Of a stretch of 64,000 nt of DNA, positions 9,479-55,905 are shown one piece after another. The stretch's first letter is position 1, and each line of letters starts with the position of its first letter. A model generated the notes under the pieces. That model was not told where the DNA came from. It saw only the letters and a list, made by a program, of their open reading frames with translations, and searched no databases. Source of the stretch: Candidatus Kerfeldbacteria bacterium CG15_BIG_FIL_POST_REV_8_21_14_020_45_12 (GTDB taxonomy: Bacteria > Patescibacteriota > Patescibacteriia > UBA9570 > XYC2-FULL-38-9); the NCBI GenBank assembly GCA_002781785.1, contig PFGC01000037.1, positions 13,589 to 77,588 of the forward strand, written 5' to 3'. A program made the position numbers and the translations under genes.

Positions 9479-9936
9479 AACGTTTTTTGGTAATTGGAGT
9501 TATATTGTTAGTTCTAGGCATCGCGCTGCTTGTTTTTTTACAACAGTTTTATGTGGGTAAAAAAATGGCTAATGTGACTATTGGTGGTAGGTCATTTAGC
9601 CTTGAGGTAGCAGATACAGCTATAGAGCGATCAAGAGGATTACAGGGTAGAGCAGAGTTGGCCGATGGGAATGGAATGTTGTTTATTTTTAGTGAACCAG
9701 TGTCAGCTGATTTTTGGATGAAAGATACATTAATTCCACTTGATCTTATTTGGATTGCAGACGGCAAGGTTGCTGGAATTACTCCAGACGTGCAGCCGCA
9801 GCCGGGAGTGGGTGATGCTGAGCTTGAATTGTATAAGTCACCTGGGTTAGTGACGCAAGTGATTGAACTTAGTGCCGGGTCAGTAATGGACTTGGGGATA
9901 AAGGTAGGAGACCAGGTTTTGGTTGAGCTTCAATAA
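9475..9936 (+). CDS. DUF192-family secreted/membrane-anchored protein
   Basis: N-terminal TM, then a LFIFSEP...DFWMKDTLIPLDLIW core typical of DUF192. Confidence 0.55.
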   Translation: MKRFLVIGVILLVLGIALLVFLQQFYVGKKMANVTIGGRSFSLEVADTAIERSRGLQGRAELADGNGMLFIFSEPVSADFWMKDTLIPLDLIWIADGKVAGITPDVQPQPGVGDAELELYKSPGLVTQVIELSAGSVMDLGIKVGDQVLVELQ

Positions 9937-10019
9937 TATAGCTAATATTCGCGCATTCTTGACACTAATCGACGGTGCAGCTATACTGTGGTTCGCGTCT
10001 ATTATTGAATGTGACATAC

Positions 10020-10337
10020 ATGATCGCTGTTATTTCAACCGGTGGAAAGCAATACAAAGTTTCTGAGGGAGGCACCCTGAAAATCGAAAAACTTGAGGTA
10101 GAAGAAGGAAAGAATATTTCTTTTGATGAAGTTTTGTTGGTTTCAAAACCTGACGGTTCTGATGTAAAGCTTGGCACGCCAACGCTTGAGGGAGCCAAGG
10201 TCACGGCTAAAGTTTTGAAACAAGCCCGCGCCAAAAAAATCGAGGTTAGTAAGTTCAAGGCCAAGAGTCGTTACTCAAAAACTTACGGACACAGACAGCC
10301 ATATACTGAGGTAGAGATTACCAAAATTGCTGTTTAG
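10020..10337 (+). CDS. rplU: 50S ribosomal protein L21
   Basis: MIAVISTGGKQYKVSEG...; the start is taken at the internal ATG. No rpmA (L27) follows. Confidence 0.9.
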   Translation: MIAVISTGGKQYKVSEGGTLKIEKLEVEEGKNISFDEVLLVSKPDGSDVKLGTPTLEGAKVTAKVLKQARAKKIEVSKFKAKSRYSKTYGHRQPYTEVEITKIAV

Positions 10338-10349
10338 AAATCAGGATAC

Positions 10350-10380
10350 AAAAAAACTCCCGCTTAGACGGGAGTTTTTG
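10350..10380. terminator. Bidirectional rho-independent terminator
   Basis: AAAAAACTCCCG-cttaga-CGGGAGTTTTT between the convergent rplU and recR. Confidence 0.8.
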
Positions 10381-10453
10381 TTTACAAATTATTTTTTTGA
10401 TATATAGCGTTGTGGCTAATATCCATAACTTATAATGAATTCCAATATATTTG

Positions 10454-11056
10454 TTAGATATTTTGGCGACCAGACATGGCATTTCCCAGTGTGATCTCAT
10501 CGGCAAACTCAATGTTTCCACCCATTGGGAGTCCACGAGCAATTTTAGTAATCTGAATTGAAGATTGATCCTTCAGTTGTTTCGCGATAAAAGCCGCAGT
10601 TGTTTCACCTTCCATGTCAGGATTTGTTGCCAGAATAATTTCAGTAACTCCGCCGCTAGCTACACGTGTTAGTAGTTCTTTAATGCGGAGTTGATCTGGC
10701 CCAGTGCCGTGTGCGTGATCTATAACACCGCCGAGTACGTGATAGACACCAGAGTAGGTGCCGGTTTTTTCGAACGCCATGACATCTTTGGGCTCGGCTA
10801 CAACGCAGATTATTTGTTTACTCCTTTCTGGATTTTCGCAGATTCCACAAAAATCATTTTCAGACACAGTGAAGCAGTCGGAACATAGTCTGATGGTATC
10901 CTTCAGTTCGTGAAGGCTACGAGCTAAGGCTTCGATTTCTGCAGTGGGTTGACGAAGCAAGTGAAAAACAAAACGTTCACTGGTTTTACTGCCAATGCCA
11001 GGTAGTTTATTAAACTCCCTAATTAAGCGTTGAATTGGTAGAGGTATTGAACGCAT
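10454..11056 (-). CDS. recR: Recombination protein RecR
   Basis: LPGIGSKTSERF helix-hairpin-helix, a CxxC..CxxC zinc finger and a Toprim domain. The start is taken at the ATG 6 nt inside the ORF. Confidence 0.9.
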   Translation of the reverse strand: MRSIPLPIQRLIREFNKLPGIGSKTSERFVFHLLRQPTAEIEALARSLHELKDTIRLCSDCFTVSENDFCGICENPERSKQIICVVAEPKDVMAFEKTGTYSGVYHVLGGVIDHAHGTGPDQLRIKELLTRVASGGVTEIILATNPDMEGETTAAFIAKQLKDQSSIQITKIARGLPMGGNIEFADEITLGNAMSGRQNI

Positions 11057-11065
11057 AGGCAAAAA

Positions 11066-11094
11066 AACCGGGGTGAAGCCGGTTTCTGTTTTAG
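11066..11094 (-). terminator. Terminator-like hairpin between ybaB and recR, possibly an attenuator
   Basis: Minus strand: AACCGG-cttcacc-CCGGTT followed by TTTTTTT, ending 4 nt before the recR ATG. Confidence 0.5.
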
Positions 11095-11396
11095 CCGAGA
11101 CTACTCATGTCTGGCATTTGGAGTTCTCCAGACTTGATCTTTTGTAACATGACGCGCTGAAGTTTTTTCATGGCGTTTTCAATGGCTTCTTTAACGCCAG
11201 CCTCTACTTTTGTTTTATTTTCAGGTGAGAAAAGTGAGGCATCGATGTCGATCGAAAGGATCTTTTGATTGCCATCCATAACTACACCGATAAGGCCGCC
11301 TACGGCATCGGCGTGTACTGTCTCCTTTTCTAGAACACCCTGGGCTGTCTTAGCGGTATCGCGTAAATCTTTGTACTGTTTGAGTTTTTGAAACAT
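11091..11396 (-). CDS. ybaB: Nucleoid-associated protein YbaB/EbfC
   Basis: 101 aa from the internal ATG (MFQKLKQ...); sits upstream of recR as in many bacteria. Confidence 0.85.
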   Translation of the reverse strand: MFQKLKQYKDLRDTAKTAQGVLEKETVHADAVGGLIGVVMDGNQKILSIDIDASLFSPENKTKVEAGVKEAIENAMKKLQRVMLQKIKSGELQMPDMSSLG

Positions 11397-11459
11397 ATCA
11401 GCTGTTATCGAATAATTGATGCTTATTGTATCGGTTTTAACCAATTTTGCAAGTCAGGG

Positions 11460-12866
11460 CTAGAAGGCCTCTGGTGGTGGGGGAGGAGGAGTACTGCCTG
11501 GGCCAAAGCGTCGTTCTAGGTTTTTGAAGGATGCTTTTTCACCATCGAAGAATAATTCTACCTGGCCAGTTGGACCATTTCGATGCTTGGCAATGAGAAT
11601 GTCAGCAATATTCTTTCGTTCGCTATCTCGTTTGTAATATTCTTCACGATAAATAAACATGACTACATCGGCGTCCTGCTCAATGGCTCCTGATTCACGC
11701 AAATGAGACAGTTTTGGGATTGGAGGGGACAGCTGTTCAACGGCACGAGACAACTGAGACAGAGCCAGGATTGGAATGTTCAATTCACGAGCGATAGATT
11801 TAAGACCACGTGAAATTTCTGCAATTTGTTGAACACGATTATCTGCGCTAGCACCACCAGCGTGACCTTCCATTAATTGTAGGTAATCGACAATCAAGAA
11901 GCCGATACCGTGTTCCATTTGAAGGCGACGCGCCTTTGTCCTAATTTCCATGATGTTCATATTGGCTGAATCATCAATAAACAAAGGAGCTTCCGCTAAC
12001 GCACCCATTGCCCGACCGATGCTGGAAAAATCCTCGTCGTTTTGTAACTTGCCAGTGCGCATTTTCCAAAGATCAACACCAGCCTCAGCGCAAAGCATAC
12101 GATCTCCCAGTTGATCTTTGCTCATTTCCAAAGATACAATTGCGGTTGGAACCTTTTCATTCACGGCGACGTGGCGGGCTAAGTCTAAGGCTAAACCAGT
12201 CTTACCCATAGAAGGTCTGGCCGCCAAGACAATCAGGTCTGACTTCTGGAAGCCTCCTAGCATATCGTCTAGGGCTGCGAAGCCAGTCGGGACGCCGCGT
12301 AGTTTTCCCTCATTACGGTGAATTTCATCTAGCCTATCAAAGGCGTCAGTCAGGACTGAGTGCAGGGGTACAAAATTTTGGCGCATGAATTTTTGAGAAA
12401 CCCCAAAGAGTGACTGCTCAGATTTGTCTAGCAGGTTCTCCACTGAATCATTTTCTTCTTGTCCAAAATTAACGATGTTGTGGCCGGCTTTAATTAAGCG
12501 CCTTAGTGTGGCCTTTTGCTGAACAATGCGGGCGTAATGAAGAATATTACTGGCGGTTGGGACTGAATTTGCTAGCGATGCCAAAAAAGCGCGTCCACCA
12601 ATATCTTCAAGTAGATTACGATCACTCAGCTTGCCGGCCAGTGATAAGGCGTCGACTGGCTCACGTTTGCTGTATAGTTCACTGATCGAATCAAAGATAA
12701 GGCGGTGTTTTTCAGCGTAAAAATCGTCGGCTGTGATTAAGTCGGCGATCTTAATCATGGCGTCTTGATCAATCAAAATAGAGCCCAATACAGCTTCTTC
12801 TGCTTCTCGGTTGTGTGGCGGTACATTCTTGAGTTCTTCCGCAGACGGTTGGTTTGTGGTGTCCAT
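11460..12866 (-). CDS. dnaB: Replicative DNA helicase DnaB
   Basis: Walker A PSMGKTGLALD, Walker B LIVDYLQLM, and a DnaB N-terminal domain. An ATG with an AAGGA ribosome-binding site at 12866 is preferred over the GTG at 12926. Confidence 0.9.
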   Translation of the reverse strand: MDTTNQPSAEELKNVPPHNREAEEAVLGSILIDQDAMIKIADLITADDFYAEKHRLIFDSISELYSKREPVDALSLAGKLSDRNLLEDIGGRAFLASLANSVPTASNILHYARIVQQKATLRRLIKAGHNIVNFGQEENDSVENLLDKSEQSLFGVSQKFMRQNFVPLHSVLTDAFDRLDEIHRNEGKLRGVPTGFAALDDMLGGFQKSDLIVLAARPSMGKTGLALDLARHVAVNEKVPTAIVSLEMSKDQLGDRMLCAEAGVDLWKMRTGKLQNDEDFSSIGRAMGALAEAPLFIDDSANMNIMEIRTKARRLQMEHGIGFLIVDYLQLMEGHAGGASADNRVQQIAEISRGLKSIARELNIPILALSQLSRAVEQLSPPIPKLSHLRESGAIEQDADVVMFIYREEYYKRDSERKNIADILIAKHRNGPTGQVELFFDGEKASFKNLERRFGPGSTPPPPPPEAF

Positions 12867-13036: not shown

Positions 13037-13109
13037 GGGACGTTAGCTCAGTTGGTAGAGCAGCAGCCTTTTAAGCTGATGGTCGCAGGTTCAATCCCTG
13101 CACGTCCCA
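13037..13109 (+). tRNA. tRNA-Lys (anticodon TTT)
   Basis: Cloverleaf GGGACGT/ACGTCCC acceptor, anticodon loop CTTTTAA, T-loop TTCAATC. CCA is not encoded. A hairpin terminator follows at 13112-13132. Confidence 0.9.
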
Positions 13110-13135
13110 CAATAGCGCCTTCGGGCGCTTTTATG

Positions 13136-26605: not shown

Positions 26606-26680
26606 GCCCGCATCGTCTAACGGCTAGGACGCCAGGTTCTCATCCTGGTAATCGGAGTTCGATTCTCCGTGCGGGTACCA
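26606..26680 (+). tRNA. tRNA-Glu (anticodon CTC), CCA encoded
   Basis: GCCCGCA acceptor, ATCGTCTAACGGCTAGGAC D-arm typical of tRNA-Glu, anticodon loop TTCTCAT, T-loop TTCGATT, then ACCA. Confidence 0.9.
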
Positions 26681-38889: not shown

Positions 38890-39172
38890 AGGTGGAGCTG
38901 GGTGGGAGGTCGGCCGAAGCTTACCCCCACCCAGCTAGCACTGTTGGTATGATCACTGTGGACTCCCCAGTCCAACGCAGGGCTTCCGAGGCCCTACTCG
39001 CCGGTCCCGCAGGCGTTATCGTTCCTTGCGTGGGGTCTCCAGTCCCACCGATAAAGCCAAGCCAGCTCAGTAATCACGGCTCTGGCCGATGCCCATGCGG
39101 CTCATCGACCAAAGGTCCCTCGTCAACGAGTGACAGCCCTCCAGCTGGTTCGTTAACGTCACCTCTAGCGCC
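38890..39172 (-). ncRNA. Candidate novel structured RNA (~280 nt, GC-rich) with its own promoter; family unassigned
   Basis: On the minus strand, a TTGACT-17-TAGAGT promoter sits at 39179-39207 on plus-strand coordinates. Downstream is a GC-rich region packed with hairpins, ending in a perfect 11-bp stem (AGCTGGGTGGG...CCCACCCAGCT) followed by CAGCTCCACC and a U-rich tract. Every frame gives low-complexity Pro/Ser/Gly or Arg translation. Confidence 0.3.
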
Positions 39173-39213
39173 GTCGGCACTCTATCTGAAGGGCCTTATT
39201 TAGTCAAATATAA

Positions 39214-39270
39214 AAAAAGAGGCGGGTCGATCAGCAGCTCTCCGAAATATTCCAGAGACCGATCGATCCG
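39214..39270 (-). terminator. Terminator hairpin for paralog A (minus strand)
   Basis: Long imperfect hairpin CGGATCGATC...GATCGACCCG followed on the minus strand by CCTCTTTTTTT; it overlaps the stop codon. Confidence 0.5.
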
Positions 39271-40068
39271 CTATTTGTTGCCAGGCGCGGCTGGGCTAGT
39301 GACCAGCACCAGTAGGCCATCACGGTTGGCGCGACAGCCGCCACTGGCCATTGCCTCCCTGACGATGGCTTCCAGCTGATCCGCCACTTGAGGTGATGGA
39401 TCCTCATCCTCATCGTTGATGAAGTAGATTCCACAGATGTAGCTCTCCTGGTCGCCATCATCGACCCCGAGCATGACCCGAGTGCCGATGGGCAGATCCT
39501 CGATGCTGCTCAGACGATCCTGGATGGTTTCGAGCAGTTCAGCCACGGCAATGCCTAGCTCGGCGGTTTCGAGCAGGGGCATGTCCACCTTGCTGTCACC
39601 GGAGAGTTGGATCTTCATGCGGGAGCGTTCAGACCAGTCCTTGATCTGGGCATCGCAGACGATGGTTGCTGCGATCAGGTCGCTCAGGCTTGCGTTGCCG
39701 ATCGGTACAGTCCTAGCGAACGGAAGATCGAGGTACACGTGGAAGCTGTGCTGTCGCCGGTGCTTGAGCCCCAGGGCCTCTACCATCTCGGCGAGATTGA
39801 AGAGCATTTCGACGGCTCGGGGCAGGCAGGCAGGTCCCAGTTCGCCGACCGGCAGCAGGATCAGCATGGTGTCTTCACCATCGAGCGCCACCGGGTTGTT
39901 CGAGTCCATCAGGTCGATGCCTTCCTCGATGAGATCGGCACAGACCTCTTCCAGGGTGTTGGGGAAGGGTTGACCCAGAAGTGAGGTCAGGTGACCTGCC
40001 GAGTCAGTAGCTGTGAACAGGATCGTCACCGATCCGCTTGCTCCAGTGAAGATGTCAGTCGGTGTCAT
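39271..40068 (-). CDS. Unknown-function protein, paralog A of a tandem triad (GC-rich island)
   Basis: 265 aa from the ATG at 40068, which has a ctGGAGGacagATG ribosome-binding site. It shares blocks with B and C (VTILFTATDS.. / ..MLILLPVGELGPA). GC3-rich codons; promoter TTGACT-17-TAAGGT at 40105-40133 on the minus strand. Confidence 0.5.
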   Translation of the reverse strand: MTPTDIFTGASGSVTILFTATDSAGHLTSLLGQPFPNTLEEVCADLIEEGIDLMDSNNPVALDGEDTMLILLPVGELGPACLPRAVEMLFNLAEMVEALGLKHRRQHSFHVYLDLPFARTVPIGNASLSDLIAATIVCDAQIKDWSERSRMKIQLSGDSKVDMPLLETAELGIAVAELLETIQDRLSSIEDLPIGTRVMLGVDDGDQESYICGIYFINDEDEDPSPQVADQLEAIVREAMASGGCRANRDGLLVLVTSPAAPGNK

Positions 40069-40201
40069 CTGTCCTCCAGTAGCACTCACCTTGAGCGCGA
40101 TCTTACCTTAATAGCAAGGGTCGATCTAGTCAATAAAAAAAGAGACCCTACACGCACCTGGAGAGGTGGGTAGGGGTGAGAGAGACTTGCTGCGCCTCTG
40201 C

Positions 40202-40918
40202 TCAGGAGCTGGGGTTGTCCGTGCGGCGCCGGGAACCTCCCGCGCCGAAGCGGCGGAGGAGCTCCAGCAGCGACTCGCTGCCGTCGGTCTGGTCGCGGAA
40301 GATGTCTTCGACGTCGAAGCCGGGGCTGAAGCCGACGAACCGCACTCGGACCAGCGTCGGACCACGCGAGGTGGGATGGCCGCTGTTGAAGACGCCGTCG
40401 ATGGCATCTTTGGCTGCGGCGAGCTCCTTGAGCTCACGGCAGACCCAGGTGGGGTCCGTGAACACCCCGACGCTCGAGGAGACGCGACCGGTGGTGAGCA
40501 GATTGGTGATCCGTCCGAAGCTCAGCCCTCCGAGCAGGGCGAGGGCCCAGCTGACCTCGTCGTTGGAGACCTGCCAGAGATCGGACGGATCGATGGCGAT
40601 GGCCACGTCGGCGAGGTTCTGGTTGGTGACGTTGGCGACGATCTGTCGTCCCGCCATCGTCAGGCGGTTTGCCAGGCCTTCGTCGATCGCCCCCACCGGT
40701 ACGAACATGACCTTGCGGCCAGTCTGGGTGGTGTAGATCGTCGAGGCGGCCAGAGCATCACCGCGGATGCGGCGATGATCGGCGTTGAAGATGGCTTCAG
40801 CCTCGACGTCCTGGTGGAAGCCGAAGAGGGGGACGCGACCGAGGCCGCAGTAGCAGGTGCTGACCAGGATGACGGTCACGGCGGGGAGCTTTCCAGAGAA
40901 CAGGGGACGGGGCTGCAT
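40202..40918 (-). CDS. Unknown-function protein, paralog B of the tandem triad
   Basis: 238 aa; ATG with a GGAGG ribosome-binding site. Blocks AVTVILVSTCY and KVMFVPVGAIDEGLA align with A. Own promoter TTGACA-18-TATTGT (40999-41028, minus strand) and a downstream hairpin plus T-run. Confidence 0.5.
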   Translation of the reverse strand: MQPRPLFSGKLPAVTVILVSTCYCGLGRVPLFGFHQDVEAEAIFNADHRRIRGDALAASTIYTTQTGRKVMFVPVGAIDEGLANRLTMAGRQIVANVTNQNLADVAIAIDPSDLWQVSNDEVSWALALLGGLSFGRITNLLTTGRVSSSVGVFTDPTWVCRELKELAAAKDAIDGVFNSGHPTSRGPTLVRVRFVGFSPGFDVEDIFRDQTDGSESLLELLRRFGAGGSRRRTDNPSS

Positions 40919-41105
40919 GTTGCCTCCAGGCTACAGCTGTGATGTTTGCTCGAAACCGAAACTTTTGAATTTGGGGATTTTACCCCTCGAGCCGCCTGAC
41001 AATACCGGATTAATTTGGTCTTTGTCAAGGGTTTTTAAAAAAAGATCGCGCGGCAGACTCGGAGTCTAGCGCACGCGAAGGTGGCGGGTGTGACCTGATC
41101 CTTCT

Positions 41106-41789
41106 CTAATCGCGGTAGAAGGGGGCCACGTCGATGGCCCAGCCACTGTTCCGCTCGATGGCGGCAAGCAGACGGTCGCCGAGGCGGCCGGCAGCCTTGC
41201 GTGGGTGTCGGATCGTCTGGCTGGTCTTGCGCCAGGTCTCCGCCAGTCGCTCTGACCGCTGCGCCCATGTCAGCCAGCTGCTGTGGATCCAGGCCATATC
41301 CCTGGCCGTCTGGTCGTCCACGACCTCCGGGCAGGTCACGAGCACCTGCGGGGCGAAGGGGGTGTTGCGCCAGCGAGCCATGGTAGCGACGGTCTCCATG
41401 CAGCCCATGATCAGCTGCATCAGGCAGGTGCCTCGCAGCTGGCCGGGGTCGAGTACCAGGCAGGTATGCGTGACCGAGAGGTGCTTCTGAATCAGCAGAG
41501 CTCCCAGGTACTGGCCGATGTGGCGGTAGTACAGGCTGCTCAGGTCACGCCAGTCCTGTCCGAGCCCGACCATGATCAGGGTGGCCGTACCCGAGACGGT
41601 GATCAGGGACATCACGTTGAGCTGGCCGGTGATGTCTGGGAAGCGGACGGCCGCGTCCATGATCGAGTTGAAGTAGCCTTCCGGCAGCTTGTCCGGGCTC
41701 GAGATGAGCACGGGCTGGTTGTTGTCATCGCGGCCCGTGAAGACGACGACGAAGCGGGTTGGTGCCAGGGTGAAAGGAACGGGGAGCAT
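41106..41789 (-). CDS. Unknown-function protein, paralog C of the tandem triad
   Basis: 228 aa from the ATG at 41789 (GGAGGcagtacATG). Blocks TRFVVVFTGRDD and VMSLITVSGTA resemble A and B. Own promoter TTGACC-17-TACACT (41843-41871, minus strand), divergent from the 41939 gene. Confidence 0.5.
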   Translation of the reverse strand: MLPVPFTLAPTRFVVVFTGRDDNNQPVLISSPDKLPEGYFNSIMDAAVRFPDITGQLNVMSLITVSGTATLIMVGLGQDWRDLSSLYYRHIGQYLGALLIQKHLSVTHTCLVLDPGQLRGTCLMQLIMGCMETVATMARWRNTPFAPQVLVTCPEVVDDQTARDMAWIHSSWLTWAQRSERLAETWRKTSQTIRHPRKAAGRLGDRLLAAIERNSGWAIDVAPFYRD

Positions 41790-41887
41790 GTACTGCCTCC
41801 AGTACGTCAGGGTGGTGCCGGCAGAAACTACCAAGCCGCCGCAGTGTATCCAAATATTTATTATAGGTCAACGCTTATTGTTAAATA

Positions 41888-41916
41888 TCTAACTTTGTGG
41901 TATAATTATTTTAGAA
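41888..41916 (+). promoter_or_regulatory. Promoter TTGTTA-17-TATAAT for the membrane protein, divergent from the paralog C promoter
   Basis: Consensus -10 box and 17-nt spacer. Confidence 0.5.
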
Positions 41917-46049: not shown

Positions 46050-46154
46050 ATGCTCTATTGTATCAGACTGACGGATTTGGTGGAAGCTGCCTATTGAATT
46101 TGTGTCCTATTTATGCTATATTGAAACTCATAAATGAAATGATCTACTAGTGGT

Positions 46155-46766
46155 ATGGTTGCCTTATTCGGAAAAAAAGAAAAGGAATTATCTATGGACC
46201 CTGCGGAACATGCGATAGGACGGGTAGCTACTCCTCATGATGTAGGGGGAGAACCTGGTTTTACTCGGGAGGGGACTCCAGTTGTAACTGAGAAACCACA
46301 AATTCCCGATCAGGCACTGCCTCAAGAAACTGTAGTTGAGGTCGCTCCGTCAATCGATCAGAATGTCGAGAATAACGAGCCTTTACCGGCGCCAACCGGG
46401 CAGTCGGTGATAGCTAGTGATGATCAGCCGGTTTCTATGGCTACGGCGGCTATAAAATCAGCAGCTCGCAAGCAGGTGGAAGAAATTTTATCGGAAGGAC
46501 TTACCCAGGTGTATCAAGGCATGACTCCGCAGGAGCAGCTAGAGTTTAGGAAAAAAGGTGAGGAGGCAGCCACTAAAATTGAAGCTTTAATGACCGGATT
46601 TAAGGCATCCGCCAAAAAAATTGTGGATATTATTCGTACTTGGTTGGCTACAATTCCTCGGGTGAACAGATATTTTTTGGAGCAGGAATCAAAACTGAAG
46701 ACAGATGATATTATTAAGTTGCAACGGAAGTTAAAAAAGAGTCGTCGGTCACGCATCGACGTATAA
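46155..46766 (+). CDS. Hypothetical protein
   Basis: 203 aa; Pro/Glu-rich N-terminus and helical C-terminus; no family recognised. Confidence 0.35.
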   Translation: MVALFGKKEKELSMDPAEHAIGRVATPHDVGGEPGFTREGTPVVTEKPQIPDQALPQETVVEVAPSIDQNVENNEPLPAPTGQSVIASDDQPVSMATAAIKSAARKQVEEILSEGLTQVYQGMTPQEQLEFRKKGEEAATKIEALMTGFKASAKKIVDIIRTWLATIPRVNRYFLEQESKLKTDDIIKLQRKLKKSRRSRIDV

Positions 46767-46777
46767 CGGCTAGTTTC

Positions 46778-49318
46778 ATGGAGGCATTTTTAGCTGGAAT
46801 AGACACATCAATGCTGATAGCGATATACGTTATAGGATCTTTGGCATTTTTGTTTTTTGTTGTTATGACGGTACGTTGGTTTGTTAGGCGTAGTTTGGAG
46901 AAGCCAAACGCCTTTCAAATGTCAGTGATGATGATTACCGTCCCGAAAGAAGGTCAAGCGGAAGATCAGCAAATGGGATTGTCATCTGATCAGGCTAAAG
47001 AGCGTATTTCAGTGGCTGAGGTTTTCTTTTCAACTTTAGGTGGAGTTAAAGCACAGCGCGGGTTAGCAGCTTGGTGGTACGGACGCAACGATCATTTTGC
47101 TTTGGAGATTGTAGCTGATCGTGAAGGTTTAGTGACTTTTTACGCAGCTGTACCAAGGTATATGCAACAGTACTTTGAGCAACAAATTCACGCGCAGTGG
47201 GAAGATGCCAAGATAGATGAAGTGGAAGATTATAATATTTTTGAACCACAAGGCGTAGTCGTTGGCTCAACCTTAAAGCTCACTAGGAGCCAGATTTTTC
47301 CGATTACGACTTACGATAAAATGGAGTCAGATCCACTTAATTCTCTGACCAACATTTTATCTCGATTTGAAAAGGAAGAGGGAGCGGCTGTGCAGATTGT
47401 TATTCGATCAGCTCGACCTGAGTGGCATAGGTTGCCCACCCAAGTCGCTAGAACCATGCAGCAAGGTAAAAGTGTGGACAGGGCTTACAGTGAAGTAACG
47501 GCAAATCTTTTTTCTAAGGTTTGGCGAGAGTTTGCCAGAGTGATCTCGCAAAAGCAAAATAAAACAGAAGCTGGAATTGATCCCCGGACAGACCGAGAGT
47601 ACCGAATCTCTCCAATGGAAGAGGAGGTAGTTAAGGCCCTAGAGGAAAAAACCAGCAAGGCCGGATTTGATGTAAATATTAGAGTGGTGGTGTCGGCGGC
47701 TAGGCAAGACGTGGCTACCTATAAACTGAATAATGTATTAAACGCTTTTACTCAGTATGCCGGCTATCAGTATGGAAATAAGTTTGTAGCTAGTAAACCG
47801 AGCACTAGTCCTGATTTGGTGAAAGATTTTATTTATCGTAATTTTGATGATAGGAAAAGTTACGTTTTGAATACAAAAGAAATGGCCTCGCTATGGCACT
47901 TGCCGTTACAGAACACCGAGACCCCTAATATTCGTTGGTTGATGTCCAAAAAATCACCACCTCCTTCAAACCTTCCAAAAGAGGGCGTTATTATTGGCGT
48001 GGTTGAATATCGCGGCAAGGAGCAGATGGTTAGAATCCAGCGAGCAGATAGAACCAGGCACATGTATATTATTGGTAAGTCTGGTTCTGGTAAGTCTGTT
48101 TTACTTACTTCAATGGTTATCCAGGATATCCAAAATGGTGAAGGCGTTGGCGTTATCGATCCGCACGGAGAATTGATTGAAGACATTTTGCCGCACATTC
48201 CAAAAGATCGCGCCGATGATGTGATTATTTTTGACCCGTCATATACTGATTATCCGATGGGTTTGAATATGCTCGAATATGAAAATGATGACCAGCGTGA
48301 TTTTGCAGTTCAAGAGATGGTCGCTATTTTCTATAAATTATTTGGAGAAGAGATGATTGGTCCGATGTTTGAGCATTACATGCGTAATGCGATGTTGGCG
48401 TTAATGGAAGATAAAGAGGCTGGCGCGACCTTGATTGAAGTCCCGCGCATGTTTACGGATGACAAGTTCCGCAAGGATAAAGTTAGCAAGGTAAAGAATT
48501 TAATCGTGAAGAATTTCTGGGAACAGGAATACGAACAGTCACAACAAGGTCAACAGGCAGCAGACATGTTGTCGTATGTTATCTCCAAGATTGGTAGGTT
48601 TTTGACTAATGACACGATGCGAAACATTATTGGTCAAAAAAAATCGGCCTTTAATTTTAAGGAGGTCATGGACAAGCAGAGTATTTTGTTAGTTAACCTG
48701 TCTAAGGGAAAAATTGGAGAAGTTAACTCATCATTGCTCGGATTAATTTGTGTCACAAAGCTGCAAATGGCAGCTATGGCCAGAGCTAGTCAGGCCAAGG
48801 CTGACCGCAAAGATTTTTATCTATACATGGATGAGTTTCAAAATTTTACTACAGATTCGATTGCAACTATTTTGTCTGAGGCACGTAAATATCGTTTGAA
48901 CTTAATCATGGCCCATCAGTATATTGGACAGCTGTCTGAAAATAACGACACTTCAATTCGAGATGCTGTTTTTGGTAATGCGGGCACGATGTTGTCTTTT
49001 AGAGTTGGTGCAGAAGATGCTGATTTCTTGGTAAAAGAGTACGCTCCAGTTTTTGATGAAAATGACATTATTAATGTTGATCAGTACACAGCTAATACGA
49101 AGCTATTGATAGATAATACAGCTTCTCGTCCATTTAATATGAAAACCATCATGCCGCCGGAGGGGGATCCTCATATGAGTGATGTGCTCAAAGAGATGGC
49201 TAAGTTAAAATATGGCAGTCCGCGGCAGGCCGTTGAAGACGATATTCGAGAGCGAGGAGCCTTAGATCGCCTTGGAAAACAAGGCCCATCGCCACTTGGG
49301 CCAGATTCGTTTATCTAG
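46778..49318 (+). CDS. Membrane-anchored FtsK/HerA-superfamily ATPase (VirB4/TraC-like, AAA_10/DUF87)
   Basis: 846 aa; N-terminal TM; Walker A YIIGKSGSGKS followed by GVIDPHGEL (HerA/VirB4 hallmark); Walker B LYMDEFQNF; HQYIGQL. Confidence 0.65.
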   Translation: MEAFLAGIDTSMLIAIYVIGSLAFLFFVVMTVRWFVRRSLEKPNAFQMSVMMITVPKEGQAEDQQMGLSSDQAKERISVAEVFFSTLGGVKAQRGLAAWWYGRNDHFALEIVADREGLVTFYAAVPRYMQQYFEQQIHAQWEDAKIDEVEDYNIFEPQGVVVGSTLKLTRSQIFPITTYDKMESDPLNSLTNILSRFEKEEGAAVQIVIRSARPEWHRLPTQVARTMQQGKSVDRAYSEVTANLFSKVWREFARVISQKQNKTEAGIDPRTDREYRISPMEEEVVKALEEKTSKAGFDVNIRVVVSAARQDVATYKLNNVLNAFTQYAGYQYGNKFVASKPSTSPDLVKDFIYRNFDDRKSYVLNTKEMASLWHLPLQNTETPNIRWLMSKKSPPPSNLPKEGVIIGVVEYRGKEQMVRIQRADRTRHMYIIGKSGSGKSVLLTSMVIQDIQNGEGVGVIDPHGELIEDILPHIPKDRADDVIIFDPSYTDYPMGLNMLEYENDDQRDFAVQEMVAIFYKLFGEEMIGPMFEHYMRNAMLALMEDKEAGATLIEVPRMFTDDKFRKDKVSKVKNLIVKNFWEQEYEQSQQGQQAADMLSYVISKIGRFLTNDTMRNIIGQKKSAFNFKEVMDKQSILLVNLSKGKIGEVNSSLLGLICVTKLQMAAMARASQAKADRKDFYLYMDEFQNFTTDSIATILSEARKYRLNLIMAHQYIGQLSENNDTSIRDAVFGNAGTMLSFRVGAEDADFLVKEYAPVFDENDIINVDQYTANTKLLIDNTASRPFNMKTIMPPEGDPHMSDVLKEMAKLKYGSPRQAVEDDIRERGALDRLGKQGPSPLGPDSFI

Positions 49319-49421
49319 GGGTTTTAAGCCTTAGTCTTGACAAATTCGGAAATCTGTGTTAATAAGAGAGGGCTTTAAGATCAATTTCGTATTTATATAC
49401 AATATATATAAAGAATTCGTT

Positions 49422-49580
49422 ATGAATCCAGAACGAGGCATTAAACCAGTTGAGCGGACCGAGCTTTCCCCCGAGGTAGAGGCTCTGCGTTTGGCTATGG
49501 TCGAGGCTACACTTGAGGCGGCGGCTGGACGTGGAAACGCCGAGGCCGGTGAGGCAGCTTGGAAAGCTGTGGCTCAATAG
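49422..49580 (+). CDS. Small hypothetical protein (52 aa)
   Basis: Internal ATG of the listed ORF; Ala/Glu-rich helical peptide. Confidence 0.25.
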   Translation: MNPERGIKPVERTELSPEVEALRLAMVEATLEAAAGRGNAEAGEAAWKAVAQ

Positions 49581-49619
49581 TTTTGATTGTGGTATAAGAA
49601 GGAGAGCAGAACAGCTACC

Positions 49620-49943
49620 ATGACAATGGACGACTTTTTTACAGACGAGCAGTGGTCGGAAGATTGGGACGAAGGTGAGGACATGATTCCCACTGACCCG
49701 CTCGAACAACTGAATAAACGGGAGCAAGATTTGTTTTTCCGAATGGTTGATTTAGTTCCAGATAACCAACGCGAAAAAGCAATTATTTATTTCATGGATC
49801 ATCCCGCAAAGATTCGCGCAGTTGTCGACAATATAAAACAGAAGCGAGAGCTCATTACCAATGGCGATAAAGAAGGACTGGCAGATCTACTGAAGAGTGA
49901 AGGGGTGGATTTTTCCAAGGTAGAGGAGCTTGAGTTGTTCTAA
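49620..49943 (+). CDS. Hypothetical acidic protein
   Basis: 107 aa; followed by the terminator GGCCC-gttct-GGGCC then TTTTT at 49961-49984. Confidence 0.3.
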   Translation: MTMDDFFTDEQWSEDWDEGEDMIPTDPLEQLNKREQDLFFRMVDLVPDNQREKAIIYFMDHPAKIRAVVDNIKQKRELITNGDKEGLADLLKSEGVDFSKVEELELF

Positions 49944-50049
49944 AGAAACTTTTTTGTATAAAAGGCCCGTTCTGGGCCTTTTTCTTTACATTTTTTCTTG
50001 GACATTGTAATATTATCCAGCTGTAATAAGAAAAGAAACAGAAAACAAA

Positions 50050-50739
50050 ATGGAAAATGATAGTCTGAGGGCTTTGGAGGATATCCATCGCCTCATTGAA
50101 GATATTGAGGGTCAATTAGCGCACCTTAAGCAACGGGTATCAGAGCTTGGGCCGGTTGATCATAATCGTTATGCAAAGGAAAAAGCGCAGGATTTTGGAA
50201 GCAGTGATGGTAATGTCACAGAGGGTGTTTTTGATGGACAAAATATGGTTGGTCCTGACGGAAAGATTTATACTATTCCAGCTAACTATGCTAGTAAGTC
50301 CAAGTTGGTTGAGGGCGATATTATGAAACTAACTATCAAGGATGATGGTACGTTTATCTATAAGCAAATTGGTCCTGTCGAGCGAAAGCGAATGACGGCG
50401 ACTTTGGTTAGAACGGATAGTGGAGGCTATAAAGCCGTGGCTAAGTCTGGCCATAGCTACAAGTTATTAACCGCTAGCGTTACCTATTATAGAGGAGAGG
50501 TCGGCAACACAGCTATTATATTGGTGCCACCAGATGGGATGTCTAACTGGGCAGCGGTTGAAAACATTGTTTCGGAAATAGAAGACGCTGATTTGTTGCT
50601 TGAACAAGGCGATAATTTGTTGGCGGACGGGCAAGAAATGCTGCTGGAGGATGGAGATGAAGAGTTATTACCACCGCCCCACGGCGAACTTTCATTCAGT
50701 GAAGAGATAGTAACTGGAGATGATGATGAAGAGGAATAA
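50050..50739 (+). CDS. Hypothetical protein with an acidic C-terminal tail
   Basis: 229 aa; followed by the hairpin CCCCCGGGATCACGGGGG then TTTTG. Confidence 0.35.
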   Translation: MENDSLRALEDIHRLIEDIEGQLAHLKQRVSELGPVDHNRYAKEKAQDFGSSDGNVTEGVFDGQNMVGPDGKIYTIPANYASKSKLVEGDIMKLTIKDDGTFIYKQIGPVERKRMTATLVRTDSGGYKAVAKSGHSYKLLTASVTYYRGEVGNTAIILVPPDGMSNWAAVENIVSEIEDADLLLEQGDNLLADGQEMLLEDGDEELLPPPHGELSFSEEIVTGDDDEEE

Positions 50740-50827
50740 GGATTAGTTTTCCCTATTTGCGTTGCTCGGGGAAAGGCGGTACACTGAAGAAAATAAATGA
50801 CAATTCACCCCCGGGATCACGGGGGTT

Positions 50828-52492
50828 TTGTATCGCATGTCTACCTCACTCTACCAAAAATATCGACCCCAGCGCTTTGCCGAATTGGTTAATCAAGCGC
50901 ATGTTAGAACAACTTTGTTAAATGAGTTAAAGCAAGGATCAACCTCTCATGCCTATCTCTTTTCTGGACCGCGCGGAGTTGGGAAAACCACTACTGCTAG
51001 ATTATTAGCGAGGGCAGTTAATTGTCAGAACCCAACGGAGGGCGAGCCCTGTAATGAATGTGATAATTGTAAGTTGATAACTTCTGGCCGGGCCTTGGAT
51101 GTTGTTGAAATAGACGCCGCTTCGCATACGGGAGTAGATAATGTCCGCGAAAATATTATTGAGAATGCACGGGTAGCGCCCTCTCAATTAGCCATGAAGG
51201 TATTTATTATTGATGAGGTGCACATGCTTTCCACCTCAGCCTTTAATGCTTTATTGAAGACCTTAGAAGAACCGCCTAAGCAGGTGATTTTTATATTGGC
51301 GACAACCGAAATCCATAAGTTGCCAGCAACGATTATTTCTCGATGTGAGCGGTTTCAGTTTCGAAAAATTGGTTACAGTGAAATGGAAGATAGATTGCGT
51401 GATCTAGCACGGAGAGAAGGCATCATGGTTGCTGATGAGGTTATCTCGGCCATTGCCAAGCAGTCAGAAGGAGCTTTGCGTGATGGTGAGAGTTTACTTG
51501 GTCAAATACTGTCTTTGGATGACAAAGAAATTTCAATGGAGTTGGCGTCCATAGTGATGCCACACACTGATCTGCGTGAGGTGCTAGGACTCTGGACTGA
51601 GCTTTTACGCGGACAACTTAGCTTGGCTATTCAACGGATAAATCGCTTGCGTGATGAGGGAGTACTTCTGACCGAGTTTACCAAGGAGTTAATAGATTTT
51701 TTGCGCAAGGTTCTATTATATAGAGTGCAGGATTCATTGTCGCCATTGGAGTATCTAGACCTTTCGAATGAAGAAGTTGCGCAGGTTGGTCAGTTAGCAG
51801 CCAAGCTGTCGCCAAAAGATATTTCGGAAATGATTGAGGTTTTCATGGCAGCACAGGAGCAGCTAAAGGATGCGAGGATTATTCAGTTACCTCTGGAGCT
51901 GGCTGCGGTAAAGTTAACAGGTGACGCCACGGATAAACCGATACCGAGCGTGGTCGTTCCAAGCCAGCCAACTAGTCCTACGGTAAAATCAGAACCGGTT
52001 AAGCATAGCGATACACCAGTAGCACCCGTTGATGTTCCAGTCGAATCTGTTAAAGAAGTTCCAGTCACTGCAGCAGATCCGATGGTTGATCAGGATTCTA
52101 AACCGTTTTCTTTGGAACAGGTATATGAAAAATGGAATGATCTACTTGAAGAGATGAAGCGATTAAACCACGCTTTACACTTGACCATGAAGGTTGGCAA
52201 GGTGGTGTCGGTTGAAGATAACCGTTTGATTATAGGTTTTGAATACCAGTTTTATCAGGACCGTCTTAATGACGCGCATAACCGACCGGTCTTAGATAAG
52301 GCTTTTGCAAATGTTTTTGGTATTCCAGTGATAGTGGAAACTGTTATTGGGTCAGAGTATGCTTTGTCATCATCTACCAATTCCTCAAATATTGCTCAAC
52401 CGAGCCCAGACGAGGTAGCTAACGTATGGGAGCTGGCTAGTAGCACTTTCGGAAATCAATTCACTCCCCAGGGCGAGGGCGATCCTCAGTAA
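50828..52492 (+). CDS. dnaX: DNA polymerase III subunit gamma/tau
   Basis: YRPQRF, GPRGVGKTT, a zinc module CxxCxxC, and SRC. Confidence 0.9.
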   Translation: MYRMSTSLYQKYRPQRFAELVNQAHVRTTLLNELKQGSTSHAYLFSGPRGVGKTTTARLLARAVNCQNPTEGEPCNECDNCKLITSGRALDVVEIDAASHTGVDNVRENIIENARVAPSQLAMKVFIIDEVHMLSTSAFNALLKTLEEPPKQVIFILATTEIHKLPATIISRCERFQFRKIGYSEMEDRLRDLARREGIMVADEVISAIAKQSEGALRDGESLLGQILSLDDKEISMELASIVMPHTDLREVLGLWTELLRGQLSLAIQRINRLRDEGVLLTEFTKELIDFLRKVLLYRVQDSLSPLEYLDLSNEEVAQVGQLAAKLSPKDISEMIEVFMAAQEQLKDARIIQLPLELAAVKLTGDATDKPIPSVVVPSQPTSPTVKSEPVKHSDTPVAPVDVPVESVKEVPVTAADPMVDQDSKPFSLEQVYEKWNDLLEEMKRLNHALHLTMKVGKVVSVEDNRLIIGFEYQFYQDRLNDAHNRPVLDKAFANVFGIPVIVETVIGSEYALSSSTNSSNIAQPSPDEVANVWELASSTFGNQFTPQGEGDPQ

Positions 52493-52617: not shown

Positions 52618-52688
52618 TGGGGAGTCGCCAAGTGGTAAGGCACACGGTTCTGGTCCGTGTATCCGGGGTTCGAATCCCTGCTCCCCAG
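52618..52688 (+). tRNA. tRNA-Gln (anticodon CTG)
   Basis: U1-A72 acceptor TGGGGAG/CTCCCCA typical of tRNA-Gln, D-arm GCCAAGTGGTAAGGC, anticodon loop TTCTGGT, T-loop TTCGAAT. Confidence 0.85.
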
Positions 52689-52756
52689 CACTCATTTTCA
52701 GCGAAAAGATTGTAGTCGAAATTAAGACGCAAAATTGTAGATACCCGAATTAGTTT

Positions 52757-53836: not shown

Positions 53837-53929
53837 TATCGTAGTTTAGTTAGTATTGCTCTGGTTTTTTATGAGCAACAGTAAAGCCTTGGTTTGGTAT
53901 TATTGCTACTTCAGTTTATACTGCCTGCT

Positions 53930-55246
53930 ATGAAAACATCATCTTACTCGCCACGCACATATGTGGCAGATATCATTATTTGGTCTTTAGCTGGAGTGGC
54001 AGTTGTGCTGTGGGCCTTGGCTCCTAGGCTCGAACCGGCCTTTAGTAGTTTTGGAAGTTCGGCCACAGCGATTGGTCAGATTTTAGGGCTGGTTGGAGTG
54101 TCTTTGTTTGCGGTTAACTTGATACTTAGTGCCCGTCTTAAATGGATTGAGTATATTTTTCAGGGGCTGAATAGAATGTATGTGCAGCACAGTCGTTACG
54201 GGCAAATTGCTTTCATGGCACTGTTGTTTCACCCTCTGCTTTTATCAATTCAATATAGCGCTGGATCATTTCTAGGAGCCGCTAAGTTTATTTTTCCAAG
54301 CAGTAATGTGGCGATGGATCTAGGAATTTTTGGTCTCGGGTCAATGATACTTTTGATTGTACTGACACTTTATCTGAGGCCGAAGTATAATTTATGGAAA
54401 TGGACCCATAAATTTTTTGGATTCTCTTTCTTCCTTGGATATTTACACGTCTTATTGATTCCAAGCACAGTTTCATCTTATCAGCCTTTACGAATCTACG
54501 TGTTGGCTCTGGCTGCCCTGGGGCTTATGGCATTTTTCTACCGTACAGTATTGGGTCGCTTTTTAGTTAGGCGCTTTCATTATTCGGTTGTGGCTGTTCA
54601 GCAACTCAATGATACTATTACGCAGGTTGTGATGAGGCCAAAAGGGCAGCGGTTGAGCTATGTGCCAGGTCAATTTTTGTTTGTTGGTTTTGAAGATCCC
54701 GCAGTTGGCTCTGAGTCCCATCCGTTTAGTATCGTGTCGTCTCCAACCGATGAAAATTTAGAGATTGCGGTAAAGAATCTCGGCGACTATACGGCTCGCT
54801 TGCCACAGTTGTCGAGTGGTTCATCGGTATATTTAGAGGGTCCGTACGGTACTTTCTTTTCATCCCTTAGAGTTTCTAATCAGCATATTTGGGTAGCCGG
54901 CGGAATTGGCATTACTCCGTTTATTAGTAAAGCCAGATCATTAGTGGGGGATAGTAGCCAAAAAGTAGATCTGTATTATTGTGTAAAAAATATTGGAGAG
55001 GCAGCCTATGTGGATGAGTTGCGACAACTAGAACAGTCTTTACAGGGACGGTTTCGTTTGTTCATATTTTGTTCAGATGTGGATGGACGAATTACTGCTG
55101 ATTACATTTCGACGACATCTGGCGGCCTGAGCGATAAAGATATTTATTTATGCGCGCCTCCGGTTATGATTCAAGCGATGAAGGGCCAATTCGTAAAGCA
55201 GGGTATTAATCCACGTAGACTTCATTCTGAAGAATTTAATTTCTGA
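53930..55246 (+). CDS. NOX/ferric-reductase-domain flavocytochrome (6 TM bis-heme + FAD + NAD(P)H)
   Basis: Two His pairs spaced 13-14 residues in TM helices (HSRYGQIAFMALLFH; HKFFGFSFFLGYLH), FAD motif HPFSI, and NAD motif GGIGITPF. Confidence 0.75.
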   Translation: MKTSSYSPRTYVADIIIWSLAGVAVVLWALAPRLEPAFSSFGSSATAIGQILGLVGVSLFAVNLILSARLKWIEYIFQGLNRMYVQHSRYGQIAFMALLFHPLLLSIQYSAGSFLGAAKFIFPSSNVAMDLGIFGLGSMILLIVLTLYLRPKYNLWKWTHKFFGFSFFLGYLHVLLIPSTVSSYQPLRIYVLALAALGLMAFFYRTVLGRFLVRRFHYSVVAVQQLNDTITQVVMRPKGQRLSYVPGQFLFVGFEDPAVGSESHPFSIVSSPTDENLEIAVKNLGDYTARLPQLSSGSSVYLEGPYGTFFSSLRVSNQHIWVAGGIGITPFISKARSLVGDSSQKVDLYYCVKNIGEAAYVDELRQLEQSLQGRFRLFIFCSDVDGRITADYISTTSGGLSDKDIYLCAPPVMIQAMKGQFVKQGINPRRLHSEEFNF

Positions 55247-55248
55247 TT

Positions 55249-55905
55249 ATGAAAAAAATTACTTTAGTTGCACTAGTAATTTTTACCATTATCGTTGTCG
55301 GTGTGGGTATTTTGGGGGTTTTGTTTCCTCCAGTTAAATCAAATACCGTGCCTAGTAAGTCTGCCAATGTAAATGGGGTCAATCAGGGTGCGACGACTCA
55401 GTCCGAAACGGCTGGTATTTCTAAAACAGAAATTTCCAAGCACTCAACCGCTAGTGATTGTTATTTGTTGATTAATGGTAATGTGTATGACGTTTCTGCT
55501 TACATCGGAGTTCATCCAGGTGGTAGCAGTAGTATTACCTCACGTTGCGGAGGTGAGGTGACTAGCATTTTTACAGCGATACATTCTAATTTCGCGTGGA
55601 ACCTGTTGGGCAAGTATTATATTGGACCTCTTGAGACAACAGTAGCTACTGGATCGACTGCAGACACAGGCACTTCTGCACAAGATGTTTTTACAGTAAT
55701 TCAGACAGCGTTGTTGGATAAATATCCAAACGCGGAAATAATCGCGACCAAGCCCTCTAAGAGTTATTATGTATCAAAGTTAATTTATCAGGGGACTTTG
55801 TATGAGGTGCACACAGATGCATTGGGCACTGTCTTGGGTGAGGAGGTGCAAGACGACGAGAACGACTGGACCATTTGGGATACTGACGCTGACGATCTGG
55901 AATAG
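55249..55905 (+). CDS. Membrane-anchored cytochrome b5-like heme-binding domain protein
   Basis: N-terminal TM, then YDVSAYIGVHPGG (cytochrome b5 HPGG motif), then a C-terminal domain. Confidence 0.6.
   Translation: MKKITLVALVIFTIIVVGVGILGVLFPPVKSNTVPSKSANVNGVNQGATTQSETAGISKTEISKHSTASDCYLLINGNVYDVSAYIGVHPGGSSSITSRCGGEVTSIFTAIHSNFAWNLLGKYYIGPLETTVATGSTADTGTSAQDVFTVIQTALLDKYPNAEIIATKPSKSYYVSKLIYQGTLYEVHTDALGTVLGEEVQDDENDWTIWDTDADDLE

Follow-up and report, generated by a model that had tools for sequence, protein, structure and literature searches.

What is the function of a membrane-anchored ATPase encoded among housekeeping genes, and do the small proteins encoded around it form an apparatus with it? 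Patescibacteria, for which we ask this question, represent a sizeable part of bacterial diversity, and their life on host cells depends on machines at the cell surface. The case examined here lies on contig PFGC01000037.1 (positions 13,589 to 77,588) of Candidatus Kerfeldbacteria bacterium CG15_BIG_FIL_POST_REV_8_21_14_020_45_12, a stretch of 64,000 nucleotides that we call the window. Five plus-strand genes fill positions 46155-50739, encoding protein A, the ATPase, and proteins C, D and E. A sequence-only reading of this DNA had described a HerA/VirB4-like ATPase that could belong either to a minimal secretion, DNA-uptake or conjugation-like apparatus or to a HerA-type defence module. Our analysis instead places the motor of the ATPase, by its sequence, with the type IV coupling proteins (T4CPs; VirD4/TraG/TrwB). 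We favor, with a probability of about 0.4, a role as the substrate receptor and motor for a Patescibacterial type IV secretion system (T4SS) encoded elsewhere in the genome.

Architecture and relatives of the ATPase

The ATPase gene (46778-49318, +) encodes 846 amino acids (aa) and belongs to a DUF8128/coupling-protein-like family, in which it represents the first of two Patescibacterial paralogue subfamilies (discussed later). The GKSGSGKS and IDPHGE motifs and the N-terminal membrane anchor already recognized in the sequence-only reading are all present. The anchor is a single helix at residues 12-36 (46811-46885, +; Kyte-Doolittle 19-residue mean 2.67), followed directly by RR..K, and an AlphaFold2 model shows one long helix over residues 10-46. 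Because these positive charges come after the helix, the remainder of the protein would be cytoplasmic. The P-loop motor domain (48020-49147, +) contains Walker A, GKSGSGKS, at residues 433-440 (48074-48097, +), IDPHGE at residues 460-465, and Walker B, YMDEFQNF, at residues 683-690 (48824-48847, +), and then the EARKY and AHQY motifs. G433, G436, K439, D685, E686, R703, K704, Q714, and Q718 are invariant in 36 family sequences, and the catalytic motifs are all intact. The family alignments also give a conserved C-terminal tail, ..LSRLKYGR..VE.EI..R (49175-49255, +), which is found in paralogue-1 sequences of other classes as well and which is a candidate partner-binding site, if the tails that end coupling proteins are a guide.

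Three Pfam coupling-protein models matched the ATPase above their gathering cut-offs: T4SS-DNA_transf (PF02534; 5.3e-12, 45.8 bits vs. a cut-off of 20.1, residues 420-752), TrwB_AAD_bind (PF10412; 37.1 bits vs. 20.5), and TraG-D_C (PF12696; 26.1 bits vs. 22). The top NCBIfam match was NF045973, VirD4-like CD1115 (1.4e-14). When the PDB was searched with a profile of the 36 family sequences, TrwB (5.7e-8) and DotL (1.8e-5) were recovered, HerA chains appeared at E values of 0.026 or weaker, and VirB4 was not recovered. The VirB4 model TIGR00929 gave 14.7 bits against a cut-off of 643.1, and PF03135, PF12846, CagE_TrbE_VirB, and AAA_10 had no Pfam match in the protein; by contrast, the VirB4-type proteins of locus L089 and of Bacillus phage G match AAA_10 and P-loop_TraG (L-numbers denote homologous loci in other genomes, plasmids, or phages). 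Other P-loop models reached little beyond the Walker A region: DUF87 aligned to residues 426-489, and FtsK_SpoIIIE (PF01580; 17.2 bits, under its cut-off of 24) to residues 416-447 only. Matches in PADLOC were weak, mad8 at 1.6e-11 and HerA models at 6.6e-7 or weaker, with two of the three HerA models aligning residues 426-466 only. The ATPase is thus, on sequence grounds, not HerA; its profile matches do not place it with the HerA-NurA helicases, and it has no NurA neighbor. The profile searches that had been proposed for confirming a HerA/VirB4-like motor pointed to the coupling proteins instead, and only the VirB4-like half of that label survives, in the predicted fold of the N-terminal domain.

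That domain spans about residues 47-400 (46916-47977, +) and corresponds to Pfam DUF8128 (PF26449), which is annotated on the equivalent region of ATPase homologues. We modeled residues 1-415 from a 49-sequence alignment, with a predicted local distance difference test score (pLDDT) of 88.5 and a predicted template modeling score (pTM) of 0.85; in a Foldseek search with this model, the top 13 chains were all TrwK/VirB4, at a probability of ~1.0. The fold predicted for DUF8128 is therefore that of the VirB4 N-terminal domain, and the ATPase as a whole combines a membrane helix, a VirB4-like N-terminal domain (as modeled), and a motor that is coupling-protein-like in sequence. A full-text search for DUF8128 returned no paper and, so far as literature searches show, its VirB4-like nature was not described before. 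Such a joint VirB4/VirD4 character bears on the kinship of the two T4SS ATPases.

Distant full-length homologues (20-31% identity) are carried by 208 plasmids of, among others, Bacillus, Priestia, Clostridium botulinum, Streptomyces/Embleya, haloarchaea, and Sulfolobus. On an Embleya plasmid, PrgI is followed in turn by a VirB4-type ATPase (AAA_10/TraC_F_IV/P-loop_TraG), the homologue, Replic_Relax (2.7e-36), and NlpC/P60. The window ATPase aligns with this homologue over 752 residues (28% identical, 7.7e-74), whereas its alignment with the VirB4-type neighbor is confined to the Walker A region. On a B. subtilis plasmid, the homologue is followed by a replication-relaxation gene and by genes for TcpD, TcpE, and an ATPase. 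Homologues are also found in Bacillus phages (phrog_5156 match, 5.9e-89); in phage G (L006, JN638751.1 89194-93336), the DUF8128 coupling-type gp156 lies directly after the VirB4-type gp155. These plasmid and phage contexts, together with the full-length Embleya alignment, indicate that the DUF8128 family fills the coupling-protein slot of monoderm conjugation systems. In smaller, 035JT001-like Bacillus phages, the DUF8128 ATPase is located in the early/recombination region, near ERF and a replisome organizer.

Within Patescibacteria the family is widespread. Among the sequences scored there were more than 3,976 homologues, and all source names given among the 120 listed are Patescibacterial, the closest of these being Kerfeldbacteria (up to 83% identity); 6,149 cluster representatives score below 1e-30. 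A genome scan found the family in Uhr-, Magasanik-, Komeili-, Falkow-, Buchanan-, Staskawicz-, Portnoy-, Moran-, and Berkelbacteria, in Peregrini-/Peri-/Gracilibacteria, and in Saccharibacteria. Two paralogue subfamilies are distinguished: paralogue-2 sequences are 49-62% identical to one another and 34-38% identical to paralogue 1, and the window ATPase is 39-47% identical to paralogue-1 sequences of other classes. Paralogue 2 carries an N-terminal motif, PRNNEKTPxAAEQxF. The two paralogues stand in tandem in L059 (1128-6163) and L064 (4869-8250), and in L053 (4917-12448) and L068 (4992-12331) they are split by E and a sigma70_r4/HARE-HTH protein. This tandem or near-tandem arrangement suggests that the two ATPases may work together. 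Many contigs whose gene content and gene order are typically Patescibacterial bear titles in public records such as 'uncultured Gammaproteobacteria', 'Bdellovibrionales', 'Methylomirabilota', or 'Nitrospirota' (L013, L020, L021, L026-L028, L048, L052, and others); these titles of metagenome-assembled genomes are probably taxonomic mislabels.

A related gene set has been reported. According to Quinonero-Coronel et al. (2025; PMC12102498), 2,918 of 3,035 Patescibacterial genomes hold T4CP (VirD4-like) homologues, 5,713 in all, of which 148 lie near virB4; the same paper places VirB4 in 2,417 Patescibacterial genomes, as a clade of its own encoded apart from the ATPase. These orphan T4CP homologues resemble the present family in numbering about two per genome and in almost never lying near virB4, and the window ATPase is very probably a member of the set. 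The authors of the paper suggest that the orphan genes were exapted.

Genes that travel with the ATPase

The sequence-only reading counted five small or acidic neighbors of the ATPase without a known family. Their lack of family stands, as A, C, D, and E had no match in Pfam, NCBIfam, PHROGs, or PADLOC; their number does not, since only four lie within 46155-50739, and of these C, D, and E are acidic and A, with an isoelectric point (pI) of 6.2, is not. A, D, and E have clear homologues and C is kept in the two closest relatives, so that all four genes are real by conservation. By hydropathy none of the four proteins has a membrane helix, and consequently none can be VirB3, VirB6, or VirB8. 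Across genomes, the cluster splits into an A-ATPase unit, C and D in close relatives, and E with dnaX (neighborhoods were called with a simple open reading frame (ORF) finder and HMMs built for this analysis).

In protein A (46155-46766, +; 203 aa), the N-terminal half is rich in Pro and Gln and varies among homologues, and a C-terminal domain of ~100 aa is conserved, ..MTPxEQxxFRxKGEE..W-L..IPxVNxxFLEQExKxK..; a PDB profile search with the A family alignment returned nothing significant. Of the first 87 loci, 34 have an A homologue immediately 5' of the ATPase, and these make up nearly all loci in which ATPase identity reaches 45%; L091, L092, and L094 have one there as well. The stop of A and the start of the ATPase overlap by 4 nucleotides in at least nine loci, and in L146 and L176, where the order CysS-CorA-E-DnaX is kept, A and the ATPase are missing jointly. 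From the adjacency, the overlaps, and the joint absence, we conclude that A and the ATPase behave as one unit and that A is a dependable partner. Outside ABY1-like genomes, a different small protein (125-150 aa) is encoded 5' of the ATPase (L039-L078; e.g., L040:2164-2541 and L061:4371-4817), with a disordered N-terminus and a conserved C-terminal motif, KGV..AV..A....D.Y.LD.FHD. Homology between this protein and A was considered and rejected, the two being not detectably related (hhalign probability 0.1%); it may be an analogous partner.

Protein C (49422-49580, +; 52 aa counted from ATG, pI 4.8) has homologous ORFs in L095, where it is uncalled, and L096 only, with no match in 87 other loci. 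Protein D (49620-49943, +; 107 aa counted from ATG, pI 4.2) has homologues in the Kerfeldbacteria-like loci L001, L095, and L096 and in no other locus. Both are lineage-specific additions. In other genomes, a methyltransferase-like protein of ~180 aa (DLGCGDGR) recurs between the ATPase and E, where the window has C and D (the L008:6069-6818 region, L009, L010, L015, and L026; also L093:4355-4894); its hydrophobic N-terminus resembles a membrane anchor. In the Kerfeldbacteria genome of L001, the ATPase is directly followed by an inserted gene (8545-12846) for a 1,433-aa protein that combines right-handed beta-helix repeats with a phage tip-attachment-like Ig domain.

Protein E (50050-50739, +; 229 aa, pI 4.4) was modeled with a pLDDT of 85.8. 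Rather than one of the VirB3- or VirB8-like folds for which the sequence-only reading proposed to check the flanking proteins, the model has a long helix at the N-terminus (residues 2-33), two small OB/S1/cold-shock-like beta-barrels (50215-50412 and 50428-50571, both +), and a disordered acidic tail (50587-50736, +), and E is predicted to be a nucleic-acid-binding OB-fold protein. An AbrB/SpoVT-like fold, considered on the basis of one JGI label and a motif, was rejected in favor of these OB-like barrels. The E family has more than 7,697 matches and no Pfam model, and the source names given are all Patescibacterial or 'hypothetical protein'. A PDB profile search with the family alignment found nothing significant, and no plasmid or phage sequence matched E in tblastn searches.

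In a sample of 80 metagenomic loci (L097-L176), with neighbors defined as lying within 1.5 kb, dnaX was found 3' of E in 44 of the 54 loci that could be assessed (81%), and the end of the ATPase gene 5' of E in 29 of 53 (55%). In L090 and L093 the E-dnaX pair stands without the ATPase (an 812-aa gene 5' of E in L090 was considered as the ATPase and is not); E adjoins the ATPase paralogues without dnaX in L053 and L068; and the ATPase adjoins dnaX without E in, for example, L016, L027, and L030. Thus E tracks dnaX more closely than it tracks the ATPase and belongs mainly with dnaX, and its family could be an unrecognized replication-associated nucleic-acid-binding protein. The dnaX gene itself (50828-52492, +; clamp-loader gamma/tau subunit, Pfam DNA_pol3_delta2 3.4e-43 and DNA_pol3_gamma3) is a conserved downstream neighbor, for which we claim no membership in a machine. 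Because CysS and CorA are co-conserved too, the CysS/CorA-A-ATPase-E-dnaX order may in large part be inherited rather than functional. So far as literature searches show, the two paralogue subfamilies, partner A, and the dnaX-linked OB-fold family E are all undescribed.

Candidate roles

We propose the coupling role stated at the outset because the plasmid relatives of the ATPase do that job and because the Saccharibacterial T4SS cluster has no recognizable coupling protein or relaxase (PMC10633639). In this reading, the ATPase is a vertically inherited, chromosomal member of a VirD4/TraG/TrwB-type subfamily with a VirB4-like DUF8128 domain, a subfamily that extends to monoderm bacteria, archaea, and some Bacillus phages. 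One helix anchors it in the membrane; the VirB4-like domain and the P-loop motor would lie toward the cytoplasm, and by analogy with TrwB it would probably act as a membrane-bound, hexameric, nucleoside triphosphate-driven motor. Protein A, as a small soluble partner often translationally coupled to the ATPase, would probably be its adaptor or regulator, and E may or may not pass substrate to it. In this way the ATPase would give the virB4 cluster its absent coupling function.

Four considerations weigh against this proposal. Neither among the scanned proteins of the window nor in ~80 related chromosomal loci does a T4SS or relaxase gene accompany the ATPase. All NCBIfam scores, including those of the TraD models, are far under their equivalog cut-offs (53.8 bits vs. 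250 for the top match, NF045973). With T4CP homologues in 2,918 genomes and VirB4 in 2,417, some genomes hold the ATPase without a T4SS. Finally, PMC12102498 reports that the t4cp homologue is non-essential for the epibiotic growth of S. epibionticum, while the T4SS genes are essential.

The alternative that survives best, a serious competitor although the less likely of the two, is a T4SS-independent DNA motor. The ATPase, together with A and perhaps the second paralogue, would then move DNA at the membrane or tether it there, in the service of a housekeeping or semi-housekeeping process. Candidate tasks are import of single-stranded DNA behind ComEC, or replication-linked DNA handling, with E as a single-stranded-DNA-binding accessory; the linkage to dnaX would then mirror a connection to the replisome. 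Consistent with such a motor, the family is near-universal and commoner than VirB4 (PMC12102498), and its Patescibacterial members sit amid housekeeping genes that include dnaX and, in some lineages, dnaE, both DNA polymerase III genes. A Pfam census of 106 upstream neighbors in distant loci likewise found aminoacyl-tRNA synthetases, DnaE, TGT, and methyltransferases, and no T4SS, competence, or defence genes. The predicted layout of E, two OB-like barrels and an acidic tail, resembles that of single-stranded DNA-binding protein (SSB), and E adjoins the paralogues where dnaX is absent (L053, L068). The com components named for Patescibacteria are ComEC, DprA, ComFC, and pili (PMC10633639), a list that would suggest the absence of ComFA; in S. 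epibionticum, neither the com genes nor t4cp is essential (PMC10633639; PMC12102498). The Bacillus phage homologues, too, lie in early/replication-recombination regions. On the other side, E is linked to dnaX more than to the ATPase and persists without the latter, the conservation of CysS and CorA means that the synteny may be plain inheritance, and the plasmid homologues are conjugation components. Saccharibacteria also have an annotated ftsK, and a role as an FtsK replacement was set aside because TM7x is among those that do.

A broader version of the T4SS-free idea, which we rate as improbable, would make the DUF8128 ATPases a distinct lineage, with a VirB4-type N-terminal domain and a VirD4-type motor, that serves Patescibacteria as a near-universal, two-paralogue membrane motor working without a T4SS. 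One possible form is a DNA-uptake or DNA-handling motor acting with ComEC and aided by A, E, and the clamp loader.

Very unlikely, and largely refuted, is the view that the ATPase is a true VirB4 whose minimal T4SS is made up by the small flanking proteins. Its predicted VirB4-fold N-terminal domain, its C-terminal P-loop, and its total length of ~850 aa agree with that view; against it stand a motor that matches T4CP rather than VirB4 profiles, flanking proteins without membrane helices, relatives that adjoin a separate VirB4-type ATPase in plasmids and phage G, and the separate VirB4 clade that Patescibacteria have elsewhere (PMC12102498). Because only A is a dependable partner among the small neighbors, the locus is not a self-contained mini-apparatus, and the sequence-only interpretation is borne out in part.

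The idea of a HerA-type module for defence or repair, whether HerA-NurA or HerA with Sir2/DUF4297-like effectors, is effectively refuted. In its favor are weak PADLOC matches (mad8 and HerA models) and a DUF87 match, which for DUF87 and two of the three HerA models cover the Walker A region only; against it, HerA chains score poorly with the family profile, no NurA, Sir2, nuclease, or effector gene adjoins, the small neighbors have no PADLOC match, and this is a core gene, syntenic across a class, with background GC content. Equally hard to credit is the view that the ATPase was left behind by an integrated conjugative element, as the plasmid and phage relatives might suggest: integrase, relaxase, and T4SS genes are all absent at the locus, the GC content of 0.42-0.44 equals that of the surrounding sequence, and dozens of genomes retain the gene between CysS/CorA and dnaX, with protein identities of 45-83%.

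Nearly every Patescibacterial genome keeps two coupling-type ATPases that stand apart from the T4SS. The present analysis gives them several handles: a VirB4-like DUF8128 domain, two paralogue subfamilies, a dedicated small partner, and a dnaX-tied OB-fold family with thousands of members. Saccharibacteria are genetically tractable, so that T4SS coupling and DNA uptake or handling can be directly tested against each other.

Window context and comparison with known systems

Around the locus, consensus matches alone suggest a promoter-like site 5' of A (46094-46122, +), others 5' of C and of E, and terminator-like hairpins 3' of D (49960-49982) and 3' of E (50807-50826). Genes for CorA, CysRS, and a Dus-family protein lie upstream of A on the opposite strand (CorA and DnaX were identified by Pfam, CysRS and Dus via Pfam on the homologous genes in L001 and L095). 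The Pfam-scanned window proteins are products of housekeeping genes, such as DnaB, DnaK, DnaJ, aminoacyl-tRNA synthetases, and G6PD. In line with the sequence-only reading, which saw no canonical VirB/Tra partners, no VirB/Tra or other T4SS component was recognized among these scanned proteins, a set that does not extend to the short ORFs in the first 11 kb or to some further ORFs.

Elsewhere in the window, positions 38900-41900, beside dnaJ, are GC-rich (0.53-0.61 vs. a background of ~0.43) and hold three minus-strand ORFs (39271-40089, 40202-40918, and 41106-41834; 272, 238, and 242 aa) without a Pfam match; the stretch has no Rfam match and may be a foreign insertion. At 53894-55905, a ferric-reductase/NOX-like membrane flavoprotein (Ferric_reduct, FAD_binding_8, and NAD_binding_1) is followed by a cytochrome b5-domain protein. 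This pair is unexpected, as the lineage is generally held to have no respiratory chain. A tRNA-Gln (CTG) lies just 3' of dnaX (52618-52689), and tRNA-Lys and tRNA-Glu lie at 13037-13110 and 26606-26680.

Among known systems, phage G gp156 and phrog_5156 match the ATPase over its full length, gp156 being 23% identical over 83% of the query; they differ in being phage genes of no assigned role, without A- or E-like neighbors. Protein E shares with SSB and other acidic-tailed OB-fold proteins the succession of OB-like barrels and a disordered acidic C-terminal tail, and an E dimer would give four barrels. The account of the orphan T4CP homologues, in its available text (PMC12102498), leaves undescribed the VirB4-like character of the N-terminal domain, the split into two paralogue subfamilies, partner A, and the gene order CysS/CorA-A-ATPase-E-dnaX.

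VirB4/TrwK of the R388 T4SS (PDB 7o42, 8rtd) resembles the ATPase in its N-terminal fold, as predicted, and in a two-domain layout of ~800-850 residues. Unlike it, the window protein has a motor that fails VirB4 profiles and is not encoded with VirB3, VirB6, or VirB8, and its relatives on plasmids and in phage G occur alongside a separate VirB4-type ATPase. From the T4CPs (PF02534, PF10412, PF12696), the ATPase differs in the 350-residue VirB4-like domain between anchor and motor, in being a chromosomal core gene without T4SS or relaxase neighbors, in scoring far below the curated equivalog cut-offs, and in having one membrane helix, where canonical T4CPs usually have two. With them it shares the N-terminal anchor, the GxxGxGKS...DPxGE P-loop motor, and Pfam matches above cut-off, and its homologues on monoderm plasmids stand beside a relaxase-like gene and a VirB4-type ATPase.

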